Shown piece after piece: positions 19,320 through 35,429 of a DNA stretch of 64,000 nucleotides (position 1 is the stretch's first letter; the number at the start of each line of letters is the position of its first letter). The notes beneath the pieces are model-generated. The model made no database searches and was not told where the DNA came from. It was given only the letters and a program-made list of their open reading frames with translations. The translations under genes and the position numbers were made by a program. This DNA is from Gammaproteobacteria bacterium 28-57-27 (GTDB lineage Bacteria > Pseudomonadota > Gammaproteobacteria > Halothiobacillales > Halothiobacillaceae), in contig NCGK01000019.1 of NCBI GenBank assembly GCA_002281735.1, forward strand, positions 10,777-74,776, given 5' to 3'.

Positions 19320-20195
19320 TCAAGCCGCAAGCTTCAACGCTTCAGCCACAGGCCGAACCACTGGCGGATGTAGCGGGTCGTAATCGTCCGGCAGCTCGCC
19401 CTGGGCGATCAGCTTGGAGCGGCTGACCAGGAAGTCTACCAAGTGGTTGCGCACGGCGTAGAAATGCGGGTCGTGGTGAATCTCCTGACGTACACGCGGC
19501 TTGGGCAGCGGGTTTTCCACGATCTCGGCGATCTTGGCATACGGGCCGTTGGACATCAGCACGATCTTGTCGGCCAGCAGGATGGCCTCGTCCACATCGT
19601 GGGTAATCATGAACACCGTCTGGTGCGTGGCGGCGCAGATCTTCACCAGTTCGTCCTGAATCACGCCGCGCGTCAGCGCATCCAGTGCGCCGAAGGGCTC
19701 GTCCATCAGCAGCATCTTCGGTTCGATGGCGAAGGCGCGGGCGATACCGACGCGTTGCTTCATGCCGCCGGAAAGCTGGTGCGGCTTCTTGTCCGCCGCG
19801 TGACCGAGGCCGACCAGCTCAATGTACTTCATGCAGTGCTCGCGCACCTGCGCCTTGCTCCAGTCGTGCCAGCGCGAGCTGACGGCGAAGGCGACGTTCT
19901 CGATCACCGTCAGCCAGGGCATCAGCGCGTGGCTCTGGAACACCACGCCGCGATCCAGGCTCGGGCCTTTCACTTCGCGTCCATCCATGAAGACATTGCC
20001 ATCGGTGGCTTCATCCAGTCCGGCCAGCACATTAAGGATGGTGGACTTGCCGCAGCCGGAGTGGCCGATAATGCAGACGAATTCACCTTTTTCGAAACCG
20101 AAATGGATGTTTTCAAACACGGTGACATCTTGTGCGCCACCCGGCGAGGGAAAGACCTTTTTCAGTCCTTCAACCTTGAGGAAGGGCTGGTTCAT
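19320..20195 (-). CDS. Cyanate/nitrate-type ABC transporter ATP-binding protein (CynD/NrtD-like)
   Basis: GHSGCGKS; LSGGMKQR; [11 protein letters not shown]; start reset to ATG 20195. Confidence 0.93.
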
Positions 20196-20200
20196 ACGTA

Positions 20201-21043
20201 TCACTCCTGATAACTGACTAATTTGGCCAGGGCGCCGAACACCATGTCGAGCGCCATACCGACCGCGCCGATCATGAAGATGGCGAAGATCACATTGGAC
20301 AGATTGAGGTTGTTCCACTCGTTCCACACGAAGTAGCCGATACCGGTGCCGCCGACCAGCATTTCGGCGGCGACGATCACCAGCCAGGCAATGCCCATTG
20401 AAATGCGCATCCCGGTCAGAATGGTCGGCGCGGCAGCAGGCAGTACCACTTGCATGGCGGTGCGGAAGGCGTTGACCTCCAGCGTGCGGGCGACATTCAA
20501 CCAATCCTTCTTGACCGAGGCCACGCCGTGCGCGGTGTTAATCATCATCGGCCAGATCGAGCAGATGAAAATCACGAAGATCGAAGACAGCGAGGCATCC
20601 TTGATGGTGTAGAGCGCAAGCGGCATCCAGGCCAAGGGCGAGATCGGCTTCATGATCTGGATGTACGGATTCAGCGCCTTGAACATCAGGGGCGACATGC
20701 CGATCACAAAACCCAGCGGAATCGCCACCAGCGCCGCCAGCAAGAAGCCGGACAGCACGCGCGCCAGCGACCAGGCCAGCTGGATGCCAATGCCCTTGTC
20801 GTTCGGCCCGTTGTCATAAAACGGGTGAGCAAGCTGACTGAGGATGGTCTGACCGACCACACCCGGGGTAGGCATACCGGAGGCCTGCACCGCAGCGCCG
20901 CCCATCATCGCGGCGTATTCCGGGTCGGCATACACTGTGCCACCGCCGCTCGGCGGCAGGGTAGCGAGCTGCCACGCGCCGAGGAAAACGATCAGGATCA
21001 GCGCGGAGACTATGCTCGCGCGCAGGGACAAAGAGGCTTTCAT
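20201..21043 (-). CDS. Cyanate/nitrate-type ABC permease (CynB/NrtB-like)
   Basis: PFYDNGPNDKGIG; PISPLAWMPL; WLVIVAAEML. Confidence 0.93.
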   Translation of the reverse strand: MKASLSLRASIVSALILIVFLGAWQLATLPPSGGGTVYADPEYAAMMGGAAVQASGMPTPGVVGQTILSQLAHPFYDNGPNDKGIGIQLAWSLARVLSGFLLAALVAIPLGFVIGMSPLMFKALNPYIQIMKPISPLAWMPLALYTIKDASLSSIFVIFICSIWPMMINTAHGVASVKKDWLNVARTLEVNAFRTAMQVVLPAAAPTILTGMRISMGIAWLVIVAAEMLVGGTGIGYFVWNEWNNLNLSNVIFAIFMIGAVGMALDMVFGALAKLVSYQE

Positions 21044-21044
21044 C

Positions 21045-22421
21045 TCACACCGCCTTGCGGATGGCGAAGGAGTCGACATATTCCTGCGGCTTGGCCGGGT
21101 CGAACACCTTGCCCATGATGATGTGCTTCTTGAAGTTCTCCGCCGGAGCCTCGATACCCATGTCCTTCAGACGTGCACGCGCTTCGGTGGCAAGGAAAAT
21201 CTGCTCGGCAATCTGCTTGTAGTCGATGTCCTGCTTGATGTAGCCCCAACGCTTGAGCTGGGTAAGAATCCACACACCCATCGACTGCCAGGGGAAGGGA
21301 TCGAAGTCCACGCGCCCCGGCACAGTCAGCACATTGCCCAGACCGTCGGCGAATTTACCGGTCATCACCTGCTGCAATACCGGAATCGGCTGGTTCAGAT
21401 AATTGGCTGGCGCAATGGCCTCGATAATTGCCGCGCGGTTTTCCGCCTTATGCGCATACACCGTGGCGTTGGCGATGGCGCGGAATAGCGCGGAGTAGGT
21501 ATTCGGCGCTTCCTTGATGAACTTGTCGGTGGCGGCAAAGGTGCAACAGGGGTGGCCGTCCCACATATCCTTGGACAGAATCTGGATAAAGCCCACGCCC
21601 TCGAACACCGCACGCTGGTTGAACGGCTCTGGCCCAAGGAAGCCGTCGATATTACCCGCGCGCAGGTTGGCGACCATTTCCGGCGGCGCAATCACGCTGA
21701 TCTGCACATCCGTGTCCGGATTGATGCCATGCTCGGCCAAGTAGTAGCGCAGCAGCAGGTTGTGCATCGAGTAGTCGAACGGAATGCCGAACTTCATGCC
21801 CTTCCAGTTTTTTGGGTCGCGATTGTCCTTGTGCTTGAGCGCCATGGTGATCGCTTGGCCATTGATGTTCTGGATGGTCGCGACCGAAGTCGGGTTGGGT
21901 TGAGCACCCAGCCCCATGCTGGCGGCAATCGGCATGGGAGAGAGCATATGCGAAGCATCGTATTCAGCGCTCAGCACCTTGTCGCGGATCAACGCCCAAC
22001 CGGCGGTCTTGATGACCTCGACATTCAGCCCTTCACGCTCGTAAAAGCCCATCGGCTTGGCCATGATGATCGGCGTGGCGCAGGTGATGGGAATAAAGCC
22101 GACCTTGAGATTGGTCTTCTCCAACGGCCCACCTTCAGCGGCCAGTGCCTGAACTGCGCCCATGGGGAACAGCGCGGATAGCGCAGCCATCGCCGTGCCC
22201 GCGCCGACCGCCTTGAGGAAGGCGCGACGGGTTTCATCATGCGGGAACAGCGCGCGCACCACGGCGGATTCGATCACCCGGTTCAGCGCCGCTTCTTCTT
22301 CCTGCGGCTCGTTCAGGCGCGCCTGCTCGGCATCGTGTTCAGACTGGCTGTTGTGCTTGCCGCAAGAGCAGCCGCCCTTGAGGCGGATGCTGAAATCGAA
22401 CGGGTTTTTGAAGGCGGACAT
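21045..22421 (-). CDS. CmpA/NrtA/CynA-family ABC substrate-binding protein
   Basis: VGFIPITCATP; NINGQAI; YSMHN; WDGHPCC; FDPFPW. Confidence 0.93.
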   Translation of the reverse strand: MSAFKNPFDFSIRLKGGCSCGKHNSQSEHDAEQARLNEPQEEEAALNRVIESAVVRALFPHDETRRAFLKAVGAGTAMAALSALFPMGAVQALAAEGGPLEKTNLKVGFIPITCATPIIMAKPMGFYEREGLNVEVIKTAGWALIRDKVLSAEYDASHMLSPMPIAASMGLGAQPNPTSVATIQNINGQAITMALKHKDNRDPKNWKGMKFGIPFDYSMHNLLLRYYLAEHGINPDTDVQISVIAPPEMVANLRAGNIDGFLGPEPFNQRAVFEGVGFIQILSKDMWDGHPCCTFAATDKFIKEAPNTYSALFRAIANATVYAHKAENRAAIIEAIAPANYLNQPIPVLQQVMTGKFADGLGNVLTVPGRVDFDPFPWQSMGVWILTQLKRWGYIKQDIDYKQIAEQIFLATEARARLKDMGIEAPAENFKKHIIMGKVFDPAKPQEYVDSFAIRKAV

Positions 22422-22984: not shown

Positions 22985-24568
22985 GTGGCGATCAACGGCA
23001 TCCTGCGCCTGATGTCGCAGATGGTCGGCCTCAATCGCGGGCGGGTGGTACTACCGGATGACAGCGGCCACATGAGCATCCAGTATGCCTACGGCCTGAC
23101 CGCGCTCGAACGCCAGCGCGGCCAGTACGCGCCGGGCGAAGGCGTGACCGGACGGGTTATGCGCACGGGACAAACAGCCGTCATCCAGAACATCGACGAC
23201 GAGCCGCTCTACCTGACCCGCGCCGTCGAGCGCACCACCCTGCCGCAAGAGACCGTGTCGTTCCTGGCCGTGCCGATTCTGCATGACAACGTGCCAATGG
23301 GCGTGCTCGGCGCGCACCGCCTGCGCAAACGCAAGCGCGCCTTCAGCCGCGACGTGACTTTGCTGCGCGTACTGGCCACCTTTATTGCGCAAATCCTGCG
23401 TATGAATGCGTTAATCGAAGAAAAGACCGCACGGCTGGCGGACGAAAACCGCGCACTCAAGCAAGCCCTGGACGATCACACCGAGGGCGCGCATGGCATT
23501 CTGGGCGACAGCCCGGCGCTGAAGCAGGCGCTACGTCAGGCACTGCACGTCGCCCCCACCCAAGCCACCGTACTGCTGAGCGGCGAATCCGGCACCGGCA
23601 AGGAACGCTTCGCACGCATGGTGCATATCAGCAGTGCGCGCTGCGACGGCCCATTTATCGCCATCAACTGCGCCGCCATCCCGGAAAACCTGCTCGAATC
23701 CGAGCTGTTCGGCCATGAAAAAGGCTCGTTCACCGGCGCGGTGGCGTTGAAAAAAGGCGTGGTCGAGCTGGCCAGCGGCGGCACCCTGTTTCTGGATGAA
23801 ATCGGCGATCTGGCCTTCGACCTGCAATCCAAGCTGCTGCATGTTCTGGAGAAGCAACTCATCAAGCGCGTCGGCGGCGTCAAAGATGTCCCGGTGGACG
23901 TGCGCATCATCGCCGCCACCCACAAAAACCTGCAAAAGGCGGTCAACGAGGGGCGCTTCCGCATCGACCTGTTCTACCGCCTCAATGTCTTTCCTATCCA
24001 CCTGCCGCCGCTGCGTGAACGTTCCGGCGATGTGCGCAGCCTGGCGCGGCATTTCCTGCAAGCCGCCAATCAGGAGTTCGACCGCAACACCATGTTCGGC
24101 GCAGGCGTGCTGGAAAGGCTGGAGCACTACAACTGGCCGGGCAACATCCGCCAACTGGAAAACGTGGTTAAACGCGCCGTATTGGTCACCCAGGACGGCC
24201 AAATCAAGCTGGAAGACATCATCCTGATCCTGCGTCACGAGGCGAATATCGGCGAACATCTGGAAGCCGGCATGGCGCTTTCACCCAGCGGGGGAGGCGT
24301 TGCCCTAGCCGCCCCGCCCATGCCCGTCCCGCCCGAAATGCGCGAAACCACCCGCCCCGCCCCGCTCCAACCGGTCAACCTGCGCGGCTACAACTGGGTG
24401 CGCGAAGACGAAGCGCAAGAACTGCTCGACGCGCTCAAACAAGCGCGCGGCAACAAAACCCGCGCGGCGATGGCGCTAGGCATGACCGCACGCCAGTTGA
24501 GGTACCGGATGGTTAAATTGGGGTTGATGGATGGAGGGGAGTCAGAAGCGTCTAACGGGAAAGTCTAA
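22985..24568 (+). CDS. NifA-like sigma54-dependent activator (GAF-AAA-Fis HTH); coding frame extends back to about 22868 with no canonical start
   Basis: GAF region, GESGTGKE, ESELFGHEKGSFTGA, LFLDEIG, WPGNIRQLEN, C-terminal HTH. Confidence 0.92.
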   Translation: MAINGILRLMSQMVGLNRGRVVLPDDSGHMSIQYAYGLTALERQRGQYAPGEGVTGRVMRTGQTAVIQNIDDEPLYLTRAVERTTLPQETVSFLAVPILHDNVPMGVLGAHRLRKRKRAFSRDVTLLRVLATFIAQILRMNALIEEKTARLADENRALKQALDDHTEGAHGILGDSPALKQALRQALHVAPTQATVLLSGESGTGKERFARMVHISSARCDGPFIAINCAAIPENLLESELFGHEKGSFTGAVALKKGVVELASGGTLFLDEIGDLAFDLQSKLLHVLEKQLIKRVGGVKDVPVDVRIIAATHKNLQKAVNEGRFRIDLFYRLNVFPIHLPPLRERSGDVRSLARHFLQAANQEFDRNTMFGAGVLERLEHYNWPGNIRQLENVVKRAVLVTQDGQIKLEDIILILRHEANIGEHLEAGMALSPSGGGVALAAPPMPVPPEMRETTRPAPLQPVNLRGYNWVREDEAQELLDALKQARGNKTRAAMALGMTARQLRYRMVKLGLMDGGESEASNGKV

Positions 24569-30121: not shown

Positions 30122-30979
30122 TCAGGCTGGGGCGTAAGGCAGACCTGATTCAATGGGCAGCTCAGGATCACGCGACCACTCGTTCCAAGAACCGAAGTAG
30201 AGTTTGACGTTATTGACTCCCGCCGCTTTGAGCGCGACCAAGGTATTGGAAGCGCGCGCGCCTTTGAAGCAGTAGAGGTAGACCGGGGTATCCGAGCCGA
30301 TGCCCACGGTGTGACATTCAGCCAGGATTTCTTCCGGAGCCTTATAAAGCGGGGTCGCGCCCGGCTTCATGAAGCGATACCACTCGATCCAGCGCGCGCC
30401 GGGCAGACGACCCTTGCGCGGGCAGAAGTCTTTGCCATACGGTGAGGAGCTGGTACCGATCCACTCATCAATGTCGCGCACGTCCAGCAGCACCACGTTC
30501 TCATCATCCAGCGCGGCCAGCACTTCGTCCTTGCCGATCAGCAGCTCGGTTCCGGTGTCACGCAGCGGGAATTCGGTACTTGCCGCCTCGGGAACTTCGG
30601 TGGTGACCGGCAGACCGGCGTCCAGCCAGGCGCGGTAGCCGCCATGCAGGATGGAGACTTTCGGATAGCCCAAATAGGCGAGCAGCACATAACCGCGTGT
30701 GGACTGGCCGAAGCCGGTGTTCATCGCCTCCTCGTAGATCACCGCCGTTTCCTTACCGGTCAGCCCGGCCTTGCCGAAGGCCTCGGAGAACTTGGCCTTG
30801 AGCGCCGCCAAGCCTTCCGGGGTGGAGGTGGCGAGGTAGGTGAAGATGTCATGGATGTTCACCGCGCCAGGAATATGCCCGGCGGCATAGGACTCCGGCG
30901 AGCGGGTGTCGATGATGACCGTGGGTTCCTTTTCGGTCAGGGTCAGCAGCTCTGGGACAGATAGTAGAACAGTGCTCAT
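30122..30979 (-). CDS. Tandem-domain rhodanese/sulfurtransferase
   Basis: YAAGHIPGAVN; LDVRDIDEW; GRLPGA; active loop YCFKGARAS; YFGSWNEWS. Confidence 0.92.
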   Translation of the reverse strand: MSTVLLSVPELLTLTEKEPTVIIDTRSPESYAAGHIPGAVNIHDIFTYLATSTPEGLAALKAKFSEAFGKAGLTGKETAVIYEEAMNTGFGQSTRGYVLLAYLGYPKVSILHGGYRAWLDAGLPVTTEVPEAASTEFPLRDTGTELLIGKDEVLAALDDENVVLLDVRDIDEWIGTSSSPYGKDFCPRKGRLPGARWIEWYRFMKPGATPLYKAPEEILAECHTVGIGSDTPVYLYCFKGARASNTLVALKAAGVNNVKLYFGSWNEWSRDPELPIESGLPYAPA

Positions 30980-31029: not shown

Positions 31030-32451
31030 TCAGTTCGCAGCCACTTGGCGGCAGATGGTTTCGTAAAGCTCGGAGGCGCGGGCGGCTTCCGCACCGCTGA
31101 GGGCATAGCCAACCGCTTTGCCGTGGGCGAGGAAGCTCATGCGGCAGGCTGTGCCGTTTTCACTCTCTTGCACCCAGTGTCCCAAGTCGGCCACGCTCAG
31201 GTCGGGTGGGCACAGATTGAGCGCCAGACTCGGCGTTTTGACGCGGATGGCGGTTGGTTTGCACTCAAACAGTGCACTTTCGCCGCAGATTGACGCCGCA
31301 ATCGCTTCAGCCTGACGCTTGATCGGCTCGATGTAAAAATAGCTGCGCCCGTCTACCTCGGCGCAATCGCCCACGACAAAGATATGCGGGTCGCTGCTGC
31401 GCATATCGGCCGGATCGGCATGAATGCCGCGATTAACCAGCAGACCCGCCTTTTTCGCCAGTTCGATATTCGGCACCAGACCCATGGCGGAAATCACCAG
31501 ATCAGTAGCAAGTGTCGCGCCATCGGTCAGGGTGGCGCGATACCCGGCGCAGTCGCTCGCACCGCCGCGCTCCAACGCGGCCAGACTGACACCGGGACGG
31601 AAGTCGATGCCCTGCGGCTTGAGCGCTTGCAGCAAACGCGCGGCCAGCGGCGGCGGCGCAAGACGCCCCAACAACTGCTCGCCCAGATCAAGCAGGGTGA
31701 CGCGATGCCCGCCTGCGTGCAGGTCTTCGGCGAATTCCACGCCAATCAGACCCGCGCCGATCAGGGTGACGTGCTGCGCGCCGCTATCCAGCCGTTCGCG
31801 CATCTTGCGGTAGCTGGCCAGGTCGTTGACGCGCAGGATGTCGTCAGCGGCCCCGCCTTCAAAGGGACGGCGGCGCTGGCTGGCGCCCAAGGCGAGCACC
31901 AGTTGGCCGTATTTCACATTACCCTTGGCGGTCATCAGGCGTTTGTCGGCAGGCTTGATGCCCATCACACGGGTGTTGGCCTGCAAGGTCACGCCCAGTT
32001 CGGCGGCCTTGTCCGTGCCGGATTGTTCCACCAGATCATCCGCGCTGCGCCCCTGACCAATGGCCATGCTCAGCGCGGGTTTGGGATAGACGCAACCATC
32101 ATCGGCGCAGATCAAGGTGATCGCGCGTTCCGGGTCGCGTGCGCGCAGGCGTTCGGCCACCGTCCAGCCTGCAATGCCGCTGCCGACGATGACCACCGCG
32201 TCCTCCCCGCCCACCTGCCCCTTGGCACGCGGCGGACGGTTTTTCGGCGCGGAGGAACCGCCACGCTGGGCGGCATACTCTTCCAAAGTGATGAAGTCGG
32301 CCTTGGTCACCCCGCACAACGGGCACGACCAGTCCTCAGGGATGTCTTCAAAGCGCGTGCCGGGAGCGAGCCCGCTGTCCAGGTCGCCCTTGCTCTCGTC
32401 GTAGATCCATCCGCAGGTCTTGCAGATCCAGCGCGGGGTGCTCATAGCCAT
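31030..32451 (-). CDS. Rubredoxin fused to FAD-dependent NAD(P)H oxidoreductase
   Basis: CKTCGWIYD...WSCPLCG; VIVGSGIAG; LIGAGLIGVEFA; VGDCA. Confidence 0.92.
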   Translation of the reverse strand: MAMSTPRWICKTCGWIYDESKGDLDSGLAPGTRFEDIPEDWSCPLCGVTKADFITLEEYAAQRGGSSAPKNRPPRAKGQVGGEDAVVIVGSGIAGWTVAERLRARDPERAITLICADDGCVYPKPALSMAIGQGRSADDLVEQSGTDKAAELGVTLQANTRVMGIKPADKRLMTAKGNVKYGQLVLALGASQRRRPFEGGAADDILRVNDLASYRKMRERLDSGAQHVTLIGAGLIGVEFAEDLHAGGHRVTLLDLGEQLLGRLAPPPLAARLLQALKPQGIDFRPGVSLAALERGGASDCAGYRATLTDGATLATDLVISAMGLVPNIELAKKAGLLVNRGIHADPADMRSSDPHIFVVGDCAEVDGRSYFYIEPIKRQAEAIAASICGESALFECKPTAIRVKTPSLALNLCPPDLSVADLGHWVQESENGTACRMSFLAHGKAVGYALSGAEAARASELYETICRQVAAN

Positions 32452-32469
32452 TCTCCAGCAATAATCAGA

Positions 32470-33606
32470 TCAAGCCGCCGCCATGGCGTCAATTTCCTTG
32501 CGCAGGTGCTTGGTGGCCGGAGTCACAATGGCCACAAAATAGGCCTCGCGCAATTTGCGCTGCGCCGGGGCGTCGTGCAGATAACCGTTGGCGCCGGTGT
32601 GCAGCATGGCCGAATTGGCCGCTTTGACCACCAGTTCACCGCCCAACAAACGCGCTTCCAGCACGCTGCGGATGTAGTCCGGGTCTTGATTGAACGGCGT
32701 TTCGCACAGTCCAGCGATAGCCTCGCGTGCATCCTCCAGCTCAACACGCAGCTCATCGGGGCGATCATCAAGGTAGCAATTAACATGCCCAAGCTTGGGT
32801 TCCACGTCTTCGCACAACTGGATGCAGCTTTCGATCACCCCGGTCGCCATACCGGTCTGCAACAGGATAAAGCCCGCTTTCATCTTCTTTAGATAAGGAA
32901 TCAGCGGGTCGCCCAACACATGGTTCTTCGGCACGAAGACATCCTTGAACACCAGCGCATAGGTGCCGGTGCCTTCCATGCCGCAGAATTTGGCCAGCTG
33001 TTTGAGCTCCATCCCTTCCCAGGAGGTATTGACCAGAGCCATCACATCGCGCGGGTTGTCGCCGCCGACTTTGAAAATGGAACCGAACCAGTGATCGGGA
33101 CCGAGGTTGGAGATCCACGGCAGGTTGCCGTTAAGGATGAAACCGTCCTCGGTTTCGACGGCAGACACCAGCAACGGCTCAATGCCGGCCAGGTATTTCA
33201 TCGGATTGGAGAGCGCCGTGCCACCGAGTGCTTCGCCGCTGGCCAGTTTGGGCAGCAGGGTTTGCTTGAGATAGTCGTTATTCGACATCTCGACGTACCA
33301 GCACACCACGTCCTGCGCCCACATCATAAAGCCGGTGGACATGCACTCTTGCGAGACAATATCCATCGCCTTCAGTGCGGCCTGCAGGTCGTATTCGCCG
33401 CGCCCGTTCTGCGAGGCGAGGTGCTGACGGAAAGCGCCCGCTTCGCCCAGTGCGCGCAACACCTCGGCAGGGTAATGTCCCTGATCGATCTTCACGGTCA
33501 GCGGGGCGAGTTTGTCGCGCACGATGTCGCGGATCGTATTGAACAGCAGCTCGCCCATGGGGGCAGCGGGCGCGATTTCATTCAGACTAGGTGTTACGGC
33601 GGTCAT
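32470..33606 (-). CDS. Acyl-CoA-dehydrogenase-fold flavoprotein, non-canonical
   Basis: ACAD architecture (GTALSNP; LNGNLPWISN; AMLHTGANGY); IYEGT replaced by IVTPAT. Confidence 0.85.
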   Translation of the reverse strand: MTAVTPSLNEIAPAAPMGELLFNTIRDIVRDKLAPLTVKIDQGHYPAEVLRALGEAGAFRQHLASQNGRGEYDLQAALKAMDIVSQECMSTGFMMWAQDVVCWYVEMSNNDYLKQTLLPKLASGEALGGTALSNPMKYLAGIEPLLVSAVETEDGFILNGNLPWISNLGPDHWFGSIFKVGGDNPRDVMALVNTSWEGMELKQLAKFCGMEGTGTYALVFKDVFVPKNHVLGDPLIPYLKKMKAGFILLQTGMATGVIESCIQLCEDVEPKLGHVNCYLDDRPDELRVELEDAREAIAGLCETPFNQDPDYIRSVLEARLLGGELVVKAANSAMLHTGANGYLHDAPAQRKLREAYFVAIVTPATKHLRKEIDAMAAA

Positions 33607-33664: not shown

Positions 33665-34228
33665 TTACAGCAGGGCGCAGTCGAGAGCGACCGGACGCAT
33701 CATGGTGTTGGCAACCGGCGACCACTTCTTGGCGTGTTGCAGCAGGGCATCCAGGTCTTCCGGGCTGACCGGATCGAGGGTGGCGACGTCAAACTTGACG
33801 CGAATGGCGGTGAAGCCCAGCGGCTTGTCTTCAGCCAAGTCGCCCGTACCCCACACGGCGGTGACGTTGATATCGCCTTCGATCAGCAACTCCAGCTTGG
33901 TCAGCTTGATGCCGCGTGCGGTAGAGTTGGCATGTACACCCACCGCTAGGCAAGCGCCGAGCGCAGCCAGCAGGGCTTCGGACGGGTTCGGCGCGGTGTC
34001 TTCGCCCAGCAGGTGCGGCGGCTCATCCACCACCACCGGCGCCAGTTCGCGGATATAGGTTAGGTTGCGGAACTGGCCTTCGCACACGGTCTTGGCTTTC
34101 AGGGTGACAACAGCGCTCGGATTGGCTTTGCCTTTCTCGCCAAGGGCAGCGAGGCCGCTCGCATCGATTTCGCGCAGGGCTTGACGGATGCAGGACGGGG
34201 CGACAGGTTCTTCAAACTGGGTGCTCAT
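33665..34228 (-). CDS. OsmC/Ohr-fold protein, C-terminal Cys replaced by Ser
   Basis: DEPPHLLGEDTAPNPSEALLAALGACL; WSPVANT. Confidence 0.85.
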   Translation of the reverse strand: MSTQFEEPVAPSCIRQALREIDASGLAALGEKGKANPSAVVTLKAKTVCEGQFRNLTYIRELAPVVVDEPPHLLGEDTAPNPSEALLAALGACLAVGVHANSTARGIKLTKLELLIEGDINVTAVWGTGDLAEDKPLGFTAIRVKFDVATLDPVSPEDLDALLQHAKKWSPVANTMMRPVALDCALL

Positions 34229-34273: not shown

Positions 34274-34309
34274 TGCACAGCCCGTGCCAAGCGGCTCAAC
34301 CCATTGATA
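34274..34309 (-). promoter_or_regulatory. sigma54 promoter plus IHF site of the four-gene redox operon
   Basis: Minus strand TGGCACGGGCTGTGCA (34274-34289); TATCAA-TGGG-TTG (34297-34309). Confidence 0.82.
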
Positions 34310-34355: not shown

Positions 34356-34410
34356 TGACATTGTCGATCTATTTGTCCTTAAATGTCCTTTTTACGGTCG
34401 AACAATGTCC
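34356..34410. promoter_or_regulatory. Candidate activator UAS between divergent promoters
   Basis: GACATTGTC 34357-34365; AAATGTCC 34381-34388; GTCGAACAATGTCC 34397-34410. Confidence 0.65.
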
Positions 34411-34486
34411 GACCGGAGGGTGTTGAGCGCGCCGCGCTGCGCGCCAAATATCCCGAAAGCCGCATCCAGACGCGCTTCGTCAATGT

Positions 34487-34502
34487 TGGCAAGCTTTTTG
34501 AT
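34487..34502 (+). promoter_or_regulatory. Variant sigma54 promoter for cynS
   Basis: TGGCAAGCTTTTTGAT: -24 GG and spacing fit, -12 is GA instead of GC. Confidence 0.45.
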
Positions 34503-34574
34503 AGTACTTTTAACAGGCGAACAATACGCCCAGCCCACAAAGCAACCTCATTCAACCTAACCGGAGAAATTGCC

Positions 34575-35018
34575 ATGATGAGCAAAGAAGCCCTGACCGC
34601 CCTGATCCTTGAAAAGAAAGAAACCCTCGGCCTGAGCTGGGAGGCCATCGCCAGCGGCATCGGCCTCTCGCCGGTGTTCACCACCTCCGCCTGTCTGGGC
34701 ATGAACAGCCTCAAGCCGGAGTACGCGCAAAAGCTGGTCACCGTGCTGGAATTACCCGCCGAGGCCAAGGCCGCGACCGAAGCCTGCCCGAGCAAGAGCT
34801 GGGAAAAAGCCGTACCGACCGACCCGCTGATTTATCGCCTGTACGAAATCGTCGGCGTGTACGGCCCGACCATGAAGGCACTGATTCATGAAAAATTCGG
34901 CGACGGCATCATGAGCGCCATCGACTTCTCCATGCACATCGACAAGGAAGAAAACCCACTGGGCGACCGCGTGGTAGTGACCATGAACGGCAAATTCCTG
35001 CCTTACAAATCCTGGTAA
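34575..35018 (+). CDS. cynS: Cyanate hydratase (cyanase)
   Basis: PTDPLIYRLYE; EKFGDGIMSAIDF; GKFLPY; RBS GGAGA before ATG 34575. Confidence 0.97.
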   Translation: MMSKEALTALILEKKETLGLSWEAIASGIGLSPVFTTSACLGMNSLKPEYAQKLVTVLELPAEAKAATEACPSKSWEKAVPTDPLIYRLYEIVGVYGPTMKALIHEKFGDGIMSAIDFSMHIDKEENPLGDRVVVTMNGKFLPYKSW

Positions 35019-35114: not shown

Positions 35115-35429
35115 TTACTTCAGGGTCGCGATATACGCAGCCAGATTGTCGATATCGGCATCGGACAGGCTTGCGGCTTGCGGAGCCATCATCGCGGTGT
35201 TCGCACCGACGGTCTTGCCAGCCTTGTAGTCCTTGAGCAGGGCGGCGGTCTTGTCAGCTGGCTTGCCAGACAGCTTCGGGAAAATACCCATGCCTTCACC
35301 GTTCATGCCGTGGCAGCTTGCGCAGATGGAGCCGAACTTAGCCTTGCCTGCAGCGGCATCGCCCGCAGCAAAAGCACTGCCGCTCATCAGGGCGATAGCG
35401 GCGGAAAGGGCAACAACAATCTTCTTCAT
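35115..35429 (-). CDS. Class I monoheme cytochrome c (c553-like)
   Basis: Signal peptide, CASCH, MMAPQA. Confidence 0.9.
   Translation of the reverse strand: MKKIVVALSAAIALMSGSAFAAGDAAAGKAKFGSICASCHGMNGEGMGIFPKLSGKPADKTAALLKDYKAGKTVGANTAMMAPQAASLSDADIDNLAAYIATLK

Follow-up and report, generated by a model that had tools for sequence, protein, structure and literature searches.

A 64,000-nucleotide stretch of Gammaproteobacteria bacterium 28-57-27 (contig NCGK01000019.1, positions 10,777 to 74,776; hereafter the window) carries on its minus strand a 473-aa gene (31030..32451) in which a rubredoxin is fused to a rubredoxin reductase. The gene before it encodes a flavoprotein of the acyl-CoA dehydrogenase (ACAD) fold that lacks the catalytic glutamate (32470..33606, minus strand; Pfam ACAD N, M, and C domains), hereafter the ACAD-like protein. 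Here, we report that the two genes are linked across many bacteria and that the fusion probably supplies electrons to its ACAD-like neighbor, which is the best-supported explanation of the linkage. An initial annotation, made from the sequence alone, had put the fusion 18 bp after the ACAD-fold gene and had proposed the same acceptor. The 18-bp spacer is confirmed and the pairing is strongly supported by gene order; the contact between the two proteins, the passage of electrons, the direction in which they flow, and the substrate are our inferences. The electron chain is a familiar one, and what is new is the fusion of the carrier to the reductase here and the conserved attachment of the chain to a new class of terminal protein.

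Linkage to the ACAD-like gene

In a class-wide sample of 400 genomes, orthologues of the ACAD-like protein (E < 1e-88, identity of at least 43%) were separated by a clean gap from ordinary ACADs (E ~1e-22, ~27% identity) and occurred in 12 genomes from 10 families. All 12 encode a rubredoxin and a reductase directly downstream on the same strand, fused in 11 of them; in G037, the reductase gene comes immediately after a 65-aa rubredoxin gene, at the same position and without a linker. Every uninterrupted rubredoxin-reductase fusion of this sample sits beside an ACAD-like gene; in its other rubredoxin-plus-reductase matches, a stop codon separates the two parts, as it does in rubA-rubB pairs. 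Three further genomes with this gene order, two of them from other classes, were found in a phylum-wide sample. The unpublished genomes G039 and G764 do not underlie any claim made here. The co-occurrence check proposed in the initial annotation thus found a rubredoxin and reductase directly downstream of the ACAD-like orthologue in 15/15 sampled genomes.

A scan of species representatives gave at least 590 ACAD-like relatives, hosted by sulfur oxidizers, Burkholderiales, and marine Alphaproteobacteria. The best 80 loci were fetched, and 75 had enough downstream sequence. The fusion lies directly downstream of the ACAD-like gene in 60 of the 75 (gap, 11 to 852 bp). Its place is taken in nine, all from Alphaproteobacteria (Thioclava, Pseudothioclava, Celeribacter, Mesobacterium, Maritimibacter, Hoeflea, Oricola, and Hyphomicrobiaceae), by a reductase of the ferredoxin reductase type (Pyr_redox_2 plus Reductase_C), which in three of these nine loci adjoins a Fer2 2Fe-2S ferredoxin; six loci have no reductase nearby. 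A pyridine-nucleotide reductase therefore belongs to the ACAD-like operon in 69/75 loci. An OsmC-like gene stands directly upstream of the ACAD-like gene in 73/75, a cyanase is present in 49/75, and a rhodanese is present in 26/75. A DUF302 gene (PF03625, E 4e-8, ~126 aa) lies between the ACAD-like and fusion genes in 23/75.

The electron chain has been displaced non-orthologously around a constant ACAD-like terminal protein, and the pairing of the fusion with the ACAD-fold gene is not chance. A constant terminal gene with an interchangeable reductase/carrier chain is typical of multi-component oxygenases, which is our strongest argument: the chain is swapped while the ACAD-like gene stays, and therefore the ACAD-like protein should be what the chain serves, with electrons flowing from NAD(P)H. 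The natural variants (fused, split, and replaced by ferredoxin reductase and ferredoxin) are ready-made biochemical controls.

Individual loci had further features. The alphaproteobacterial form of the operon (L095:9195-12189, from Thioclava marina; also L094, L099, and L101) has, in this order, genes for the OsmC-like and ACAD-like proteins, rhodanese, cyanase, ferredoxin reductase, and a 2Fe-2S ferredoxin, and a DsbA-like gene precedes the reductase in L085 and L093. The DUF302 gene (L006:4309-4704, L008:4305-4685, L009:8868-9248, L010:9361-9741, and others) occurs neither in this window nor in Halothiobacillaceae. In the closed genome G220, the rhodanese that follows the fusion (L004:6572-7959) aligned in three gapped pieces (tblastn), and the gene may be disrupted or have insertions. 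A Burkholderiaceae metagenome-assembled genome (L082:2143-2790) has only fusion residues 7 to 134, running straight into a cyanase fragment; this remnant reflects either decay of the gene or an assembly error.

The fusion, its partner, and the proposed electron route

The initial annotation had read the gene as a complete rubredoxin fused to an FAD/NAD(P)H reductase, and this was borne out: the reading frame is open, and the Pfam domains and iron ligands are intact. The rubredoxin domain (residues 7 to 53, 32293..32433, minus strand as for all parts; PF00301, E 1.1e-21, 77 bits against a cutoff of 23) has CxxCG and CPxCG motifs, with the Fe(Cys)4 ligands C10, C13, C43, and C46 (C10-x-x-C13-G, C43-P-x-C46-G) invariant in an alignment of 32 homologues, which also served for the conservation figures that follow. 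The FAD- and NADH-binding domains of the reductase (residues 85 to 395, 31267..32199) matched Pyr_redox_2 (residues 85 to 367, E 1.7e-49) and Pyr_redox (residues 227 to 297, E 6.9e-15), and the C-terminal rubredoxin-binding domain (residues 398 to 463, 31063..31260) matched PF18113 Rbx_binding (E 3.7e-9, 36.7 bits against a cutoff of 22.1). GSGIAG (90 to 95), GAGLIG (232 to 237), and G361-D-C363 are invariant or nearly so; D255, which ends the NAD beta2 strand, is 97% conserved and suggests a preference for NADH. The closest solved structure for the reductase part is Pseudomonas aeruginosa rubredoxin reductase (2v3a/2v3b, E 9e-68). Among NCBIfam models, RubredRD scored 79 bits (under the equivalog cutoff of 90) and NorW scored best, at 261.5 bits under a cutoff of 392; identity with NorW was rejected on this score and because no NorV adjoins. 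The protein combines an intact rubredoxin with a RubB/NorW-type FAD reductase and is predicted from its sequence to reduce that rubredoxin with NADH.

Rubredoxin is the most conserved segment (mean column identity, 0.83, versus 0.67 for the reductase core). The A/G/R/P-rich flexible linker between the two (residues 56 to 84, 32200..32286) is 24 to 30 aa long among the homologues and variable in sequence. In the AlphaFold2 model (overall predicted local distance difference test [pLDDT], 90; predicted template modeling score [pTM], 0.80), linker pLDDT was 56 to 57, falling below 50 at residues 66 to 74, and the linker is accordingly modeled as disordered. The true start is probably M3 (32445), because GGAG stands 7 nt 5' of the second ATG and the homologues begin there.

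The ACAD-like protein is closest by sequence to true short-chain and isovaleryl-CoA dehydrogenases (IVD) in the PDB (E ~1e-21), and by fold its best PDB matches are true ACADs (TM ~0.82). The position of the YEG glutamate falls in an invariant motif, IVTPA(T/I)KHLRKE (here IVTPAT, with YEG aligned to IVT), and the IVD-type position is a gap or a hydrophobic stretch without Glu; motifs that contact the flavin, W-I-S-N and G-x-x-G-Y among them, are retained. It is encoded by the only ACAD-fold gene of this genome (2.3 Mb, 96% complete), in which a search for electron transfer flavoprotein (ETF) found none; ETF was also absent from G220 and G372, two closed genomes of its family. A role as an acyl-CoA dehydrogenase was rejected, as neither position has a catalytic Glu and the genome has no ETF. 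A group D two-component flavin monooxygenase was rejected as well: the linked reductase is of the RubB type with a fused rubredoxin, or a ferredoxin reductase, and no small flavin reductase gene was seen in the annotated loci. HsaA-type hydroxylases were far weaker matches (3afe, E 1.4e-5; 2rfq, 6.7e-4), as was XiaF (2.4e-4).

Complex prediction, another check proposed in the initial annotation, was run with an ACAD-like dimer, two FAD, Fe, and rubredoxin residues 1 to 60, each protein given as an alignment. The median score was 0.37 and that of the best control was 0.01, which counts as weak support; runs agreed in at least 94% of contacts, and partner pLDDT was at least 79. In the benchmark, the mark was reached by 58/80 solved complexes and 2/110 mismatched pairs; at scores of 0.60 or lower, it was reached by 7 of the 80 solved complexes and by both mismatches. 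We count the predicted complex as a slight gain for a hypothesis that the genomic evidence had already made likely.

In the proposed route, NADH would bind the reductase, whose FAD would reduce the tethered Fe(Cys)4 center by way of the retained rubredoxin-binding domain. On its disordered linker of 24 to 30 residues, the rubredoxin would swing from its own reductase to the FAD bound by the ACAD-like protein and back, and electrons would pass singly from the NADH chain into that flavin. The fusion would take the role that ETF has for true ACADs, or that a ferredoxin reductase and ferredoxin have for P450 and Rieske oxygenases. The nearness of the ACAD-like protein to true ACADs, which bind FAD tightly and exchange single electrons with a protein partner, speaks for this route, and to our knowledge rubredoxin/rubredoxin reductase and ferredoxin reductase/ferredoxin chains act only as NAD(P)H-to-acceptor chains. 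The reduced flavin could react with O2 to form a C4a-hydroperoxide that oxygenates a soft nucleophile, or it could remain in its reduced form during the cleavage of a C-S or C-N bond, with no net redox change. DszC and MsuC are ACAD-fold sulfur oxygenases, and some flavoenzymes need reduced flavin without electron turnover.

The same NADH-to-FAD-to-Fe(Cys)4 chain, fold, and rubredoxin-binding domain are found in RdxR-Rdx of P. aeruginosa (2v3a/2v3b) and AlkT-AlkG of P. putida. Unlike in alkane hydroxylase systems, the carrier and reductase here form one polypeptide with a linker, no AlkB was found, and the genes lie in a cyanate cluster of the nitrogen (sigma54) type, with an ACAD-fold flavoprotein as the linked partner. 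NorW/NorV of Escherichia coli, with NorR, likewise has a rubredoxin fused to a partner and a GAF-sigma54-HTH activator nearby, but here the rubredoxin is fused to the reductase and not to the acceptor, and the cluster has no flavodiiron gene. DszC/DszD, MsuC/MsuE, HpaB/HpaC, and HsaA/HsaB also combine an ACAD fold without catalytic Glu with an NADH-dependent reductase; whereas these two-component monooxygenases use free reduced flavin from small flavin reductases, the reductase here carries an Fe-S carrier, and the ACAD-like protein is far closer to true ACADs than to HsaA-type hydroxylases or XiaF. Protein-to-protein one-electron transfer with a bound cofactor, as proposed here, occurs in ACAD-ETF, class I P450, and Rieske systems, and the alphaproteobacterial operons have a ferredoxin reductase of the putidaredoxin reductase type. 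The difference is that no ETF was found here and that the terminal protein is neither a heme nor a Rieske enzyme.

Rubredoxin chains are textbook donors to non-heme iron enzymes, and ACAD-fold enzymes pair with ETF or with free reduced flavin. An Fe-S carrier chain feeding an ACAD-fold flavoprotein would, if true, be a new wiring of a flavoenzyme, a three-cofactor system running from an NADH reductase over an Fe-S carrier to an ACAD-fold terminal flavoprotein. A search of the literature on thiocyanate, cyanase, rubredoxin, and acyl-CoA dehydrogenase together with rubredoxin reductase fusions found no paper describing the module formed by the OsmC-like, ACAD-like, and fusion genes. A Guyparkeria/Thiohalobacter genome paper mentions cyanase operons and not these three genes. 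A review of AlkB electron transfer lists AlkB-rubredoxin fusions and, in the passages on fusions that were consulted, names no rubredoxin-rubredoxin reductase fusion (PMC8918992).

Other acceptors and the direction of flow

Several points weigh against electron supply to the ACAD-like protein. The support is genomic, and we infer contact and electron transfer from it. The 6/75 loci that lack a neighboring reductase suggest that the ACAD-like protein can do without a donor or can draw on one encoded at another place. Linkage is just as tight for the OsmC-like gene (73/75), and gene order alone cannot tell which of the two products is the acceptor. We know of no ACAD-fold oxygenase that takes its electrons from an Fe-S protein; the known ones take free reduced flavin. 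The complex score lies in a band in which a pass is wrong more often than right, unless the pairing was likely to begin with. Finally, a flavodiiron protein (FDP) of a nif cluster and two partnerless P450s might use the sole rubredoxin of this genome.

The linkage of the OsmC-like gene raises the alternative that the acceptor is a sulfur species on the OsmC-like, rhodanese, or DUF302 protein, with the fusion acting as an NADH-dependent persulfide/polysulfide or peroxide-linked reductase. The OsmC-like gene upstream (73/75), the rhodanese (26/75), and the intervening DUF302 gene (23/75) fit this, as do coenzyme A (CoA)-persulfide and NADH persulfide reductases among the weak PDB matches of the reductase (E 1e-15 to 1e-18). 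We nevertheless consider it unlikely. The reductase carries the Y-x-K-P-x-L-S segment of the RubB type and lacks a redox-active Cys at the position used by CoA disulfide reductase (CoADR), its rubredoxin-binding domain is retained, and most loci have no rhodanese, just as most have no DUF302. The swap to ferredoxin reductase and 2Fe-2S ferredoxin fits a one-electron carrier whose target is a redox cofactor rather than a thiol. The donors of OsmC/Ohr proteins are two-electron dithiols, and we know of no rubredoxin-dependent OsmC.

The initial annotation had also noted that no AlkB- or rubrerythrin-type acceptor was present. In this 96%-complete genome, searches for AlkB/FA_desaturase (PF00487), rubrerythrin, and desulfoferrodoxin found none, and PF00487 was likewise not found in G220 and G372; an alkane hydroxylase electron transfer system was rejected for want of an AlkB acceptor. 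Matches to the rubrerythrin family and FA_desaturase are present in many other module-bearing genomes, so that the lack of classical acceptors characterizes this genome and its family and does not extend to every carrier of the module. Even here the statement needs qualifying, as other contigs hold candidates, one of which, the FDP, is of a classical acceptor type. A class-A-like flavodiiron core without its own rubredoxin (G000:C46:74908-76101; L018:7834-9153) lies in a nif cluster (NifB, small 4Fe-4S ferredoxin, ArsC-like, FDP, NifQ, and DraG), and the source organism is probably a diazotroph. Two P450 genes of this sulfur oxidizer (L019:7143-8552 and L020:6762-8201, on contigs C32 and C29) sit in envelope biosynthesis clusters of the capsule synthesis and lipid A acyltransferase type, with no ferredoxin or reductase adjoining. 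Just upstream of the nif genes, a 998-aa open reading frame (ORF; L018:2178-5174) has a weak reverse transcriptase domain (RVT_1, E 4e-9).

It is improbable that the fusion mainly serves the FDP (in O2/NO protection of nitrogenase) or the two P450s, with the ACAD-like neighbor incidental. That the only rubredoxin domain of the genome is in the fusion, that the flavodiiron core has none of its own, that the P450s have no adjoining redox partner, and that NorW is the best NCBIfam match would all suit such a role. Against it, the FDP has its own neighboring ferredoxin gene and the NorW score is under its cutoff (261 against 392 bits). Of the 11 other module genomes, only G257 has an FDP core and only G149 a P450. 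The two closed genomes, G220 and G372, encode neither protein, and in both the fusion is retained next to the ACAD-like gene. An acceptor elsewhere in the genome, which the initial annotation had named as a possible refutation, thus exists in the FDP but does not travel with the fusion in relatives. In this organism, the rubredoxin may be shared with the FDP and the P450s, but these proteins cannot account for the retention of the fusion at its position.

Very improbable, too, is a reverse flow in which the ACAD-like protein oxidizes a substrate and passes electrons through rubredoxin and reductase to NAD+, replacing ETF: the likeness to true dehydrogenases, the absence of ETF here and in G220 and G372, and a nearby cytochrome c gene (35115-35429) would favor it, but the catalytic base is missing, such chains are known to us only as NAD(P)H-to-acceptor chains, the final steps would be steeply uphill because rubredoxin lies near 0 mV and NAD+/NADH at -320 mV, and oxidation of thiocyanate to cyanate and S0, at about -170 mV by a rough estimate from tabulated formation energies, would also fall short of NAD+.

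Cyanate-type surroundings and fusions elsewhere

On the minus strand, the gene order is OsmC-like (33665..34228; PF02566, E 7e-20), ACAD-like, fusion, a tandem-rhodanese sulfurtransferase (30122..30979; two PF00581 domains, E 5.8e-37), and CopD-like and TPR-like ORFs. A sigma54-type -24/-12 element, TGGCACGGGCTGTGC (34275..34289, minus strand; pattern match with one mismatch), stands 47 bp upstream of the OsmC-like start; matches to the pattern across the window are no more numerous than expected by chance, and only its position favors this one. Sigma70-type promoters and terminators were sought inside the operon stretch, and none was found.

Cyanase (CynS; 34383..35018, plus strand; Pfam Cyanate_lyase, E 4e-37; NCBIfam cyanase, 200 bits against a cutoff of 150) is divergent from the operon. 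Its listed ORF has ~65 extra N-terminal residues without homology, with matches beginning at residue 66, and the start is probably further downstream and the divergent intergenic region longer than it looks. The cytochrome c gene (Pfam) follows at 35115-35429. An NrtABC/CynABD-type ABC importer (binding protein, permease, and ATPase; 19320..22421, minus strand; NMT1_2; ntrB, 227 bits, and ntrCD, 312 bits, both over their cutoffs) and a GAF-sigma54-HTH activator (22985..24568, plus strand; Pfam) complete the frame. The activator is NifA-like (NifA model, 455 bits, under the cutoff of 529), scores higher on that model than on NorR, and is called CynF-like by its position, not by sequence comparison with CynF; such an activator adjoins the module in most related loci.

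This frame of activator, importer, and cyanase is like cynFABDS of P. pseudoalcaligenes CECT5344, in which a sigma54-dependent activator is divergent from an ABC importer and is accompanied by a cyanase (PMC6627978). In that organism, the sigma54-dependent CynF is needed for cyanate-induced, ammonium-repressed expression (PMC6627978). The cyn cluster as described there is without OsmC-like, ACAD-like, and rubredoxin-rubredoxin reductase genes, unlike this window (PMC6627978).

The fusion, ACAD-like, and OsmC-like genes would then form an accessory module of a sigma54-type cluster like CynF/CynABD/CynS. The product of the module may be cyanate, made from thiocyanate, cyanide, or another such precursor; both substrate and product are suggested by the cyanate frame together with the OsmC-like and rhodanese genes. 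As a tentative proposal that we hold to be possible rather than probable, the rubredoxin-reduced flavin of the ACAD-like protein would oxygenate or cleave thiocyanate or cyanide to cyanate, with the OsmC-like protein and rhodanese receiving the sulfur and cyanase the cyanate. Cyanide is known to react with peroxide to give cyanate. If the proposal is true, hundreds of bacterial species would have the assimilatory path from thiocyanate or cyanide to cyanate that has long been missing. The function of the module could identify the enzyme that forms cyanate from either compound, and it bears on nitrogen and sulfur cycling and on the cleanup of waste from mining and coking.

In one metatranscriptome library, a 1,349-nt contig 95% identical to the window spans 32196-33544 and bridges the junction of the ACAD-like and fusion genes, and other contigs cover the rhodanese and OsmC-like genes. 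The bridging contig is a hint only, as a contig does not establish a single transcript and the library may contain DNA; parts of the fusion gene are uncovered in the contigs of this 95%-identical relative, which shows nothing either way. Even close relatives differ in the spacer that separates the ACAD-like gene from the fusion: in a freshwater-sediment relative (~95% identity, 5,137-nt contig), 11 nt at 32456-32468 are replaced by 167 other letters.

Outside the module, the phylum-wide sample contained five further rubredoxin-rubredoxin reductase fusions, 31 to 38% identical (L023:6880-9666, L024:5201-10796, L022:6868-10500, and L025:6862-9583 are among these distant loci). They adjoin Rieske oxygenases (two), an OYE-PNDR protein, a leucine-catabolic IVD gene, and unrelated genes; the genome with the IVD neighbor does have ETF. 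The idea that the fusion architecture is unique to the ACAD-like operon was refuted by these loci. A rubredoxin fused to its reductase is thus nothing unusual by itself, and fused rubredoxin-rubredoxin reductase proteins serve several uncharacterized systems.

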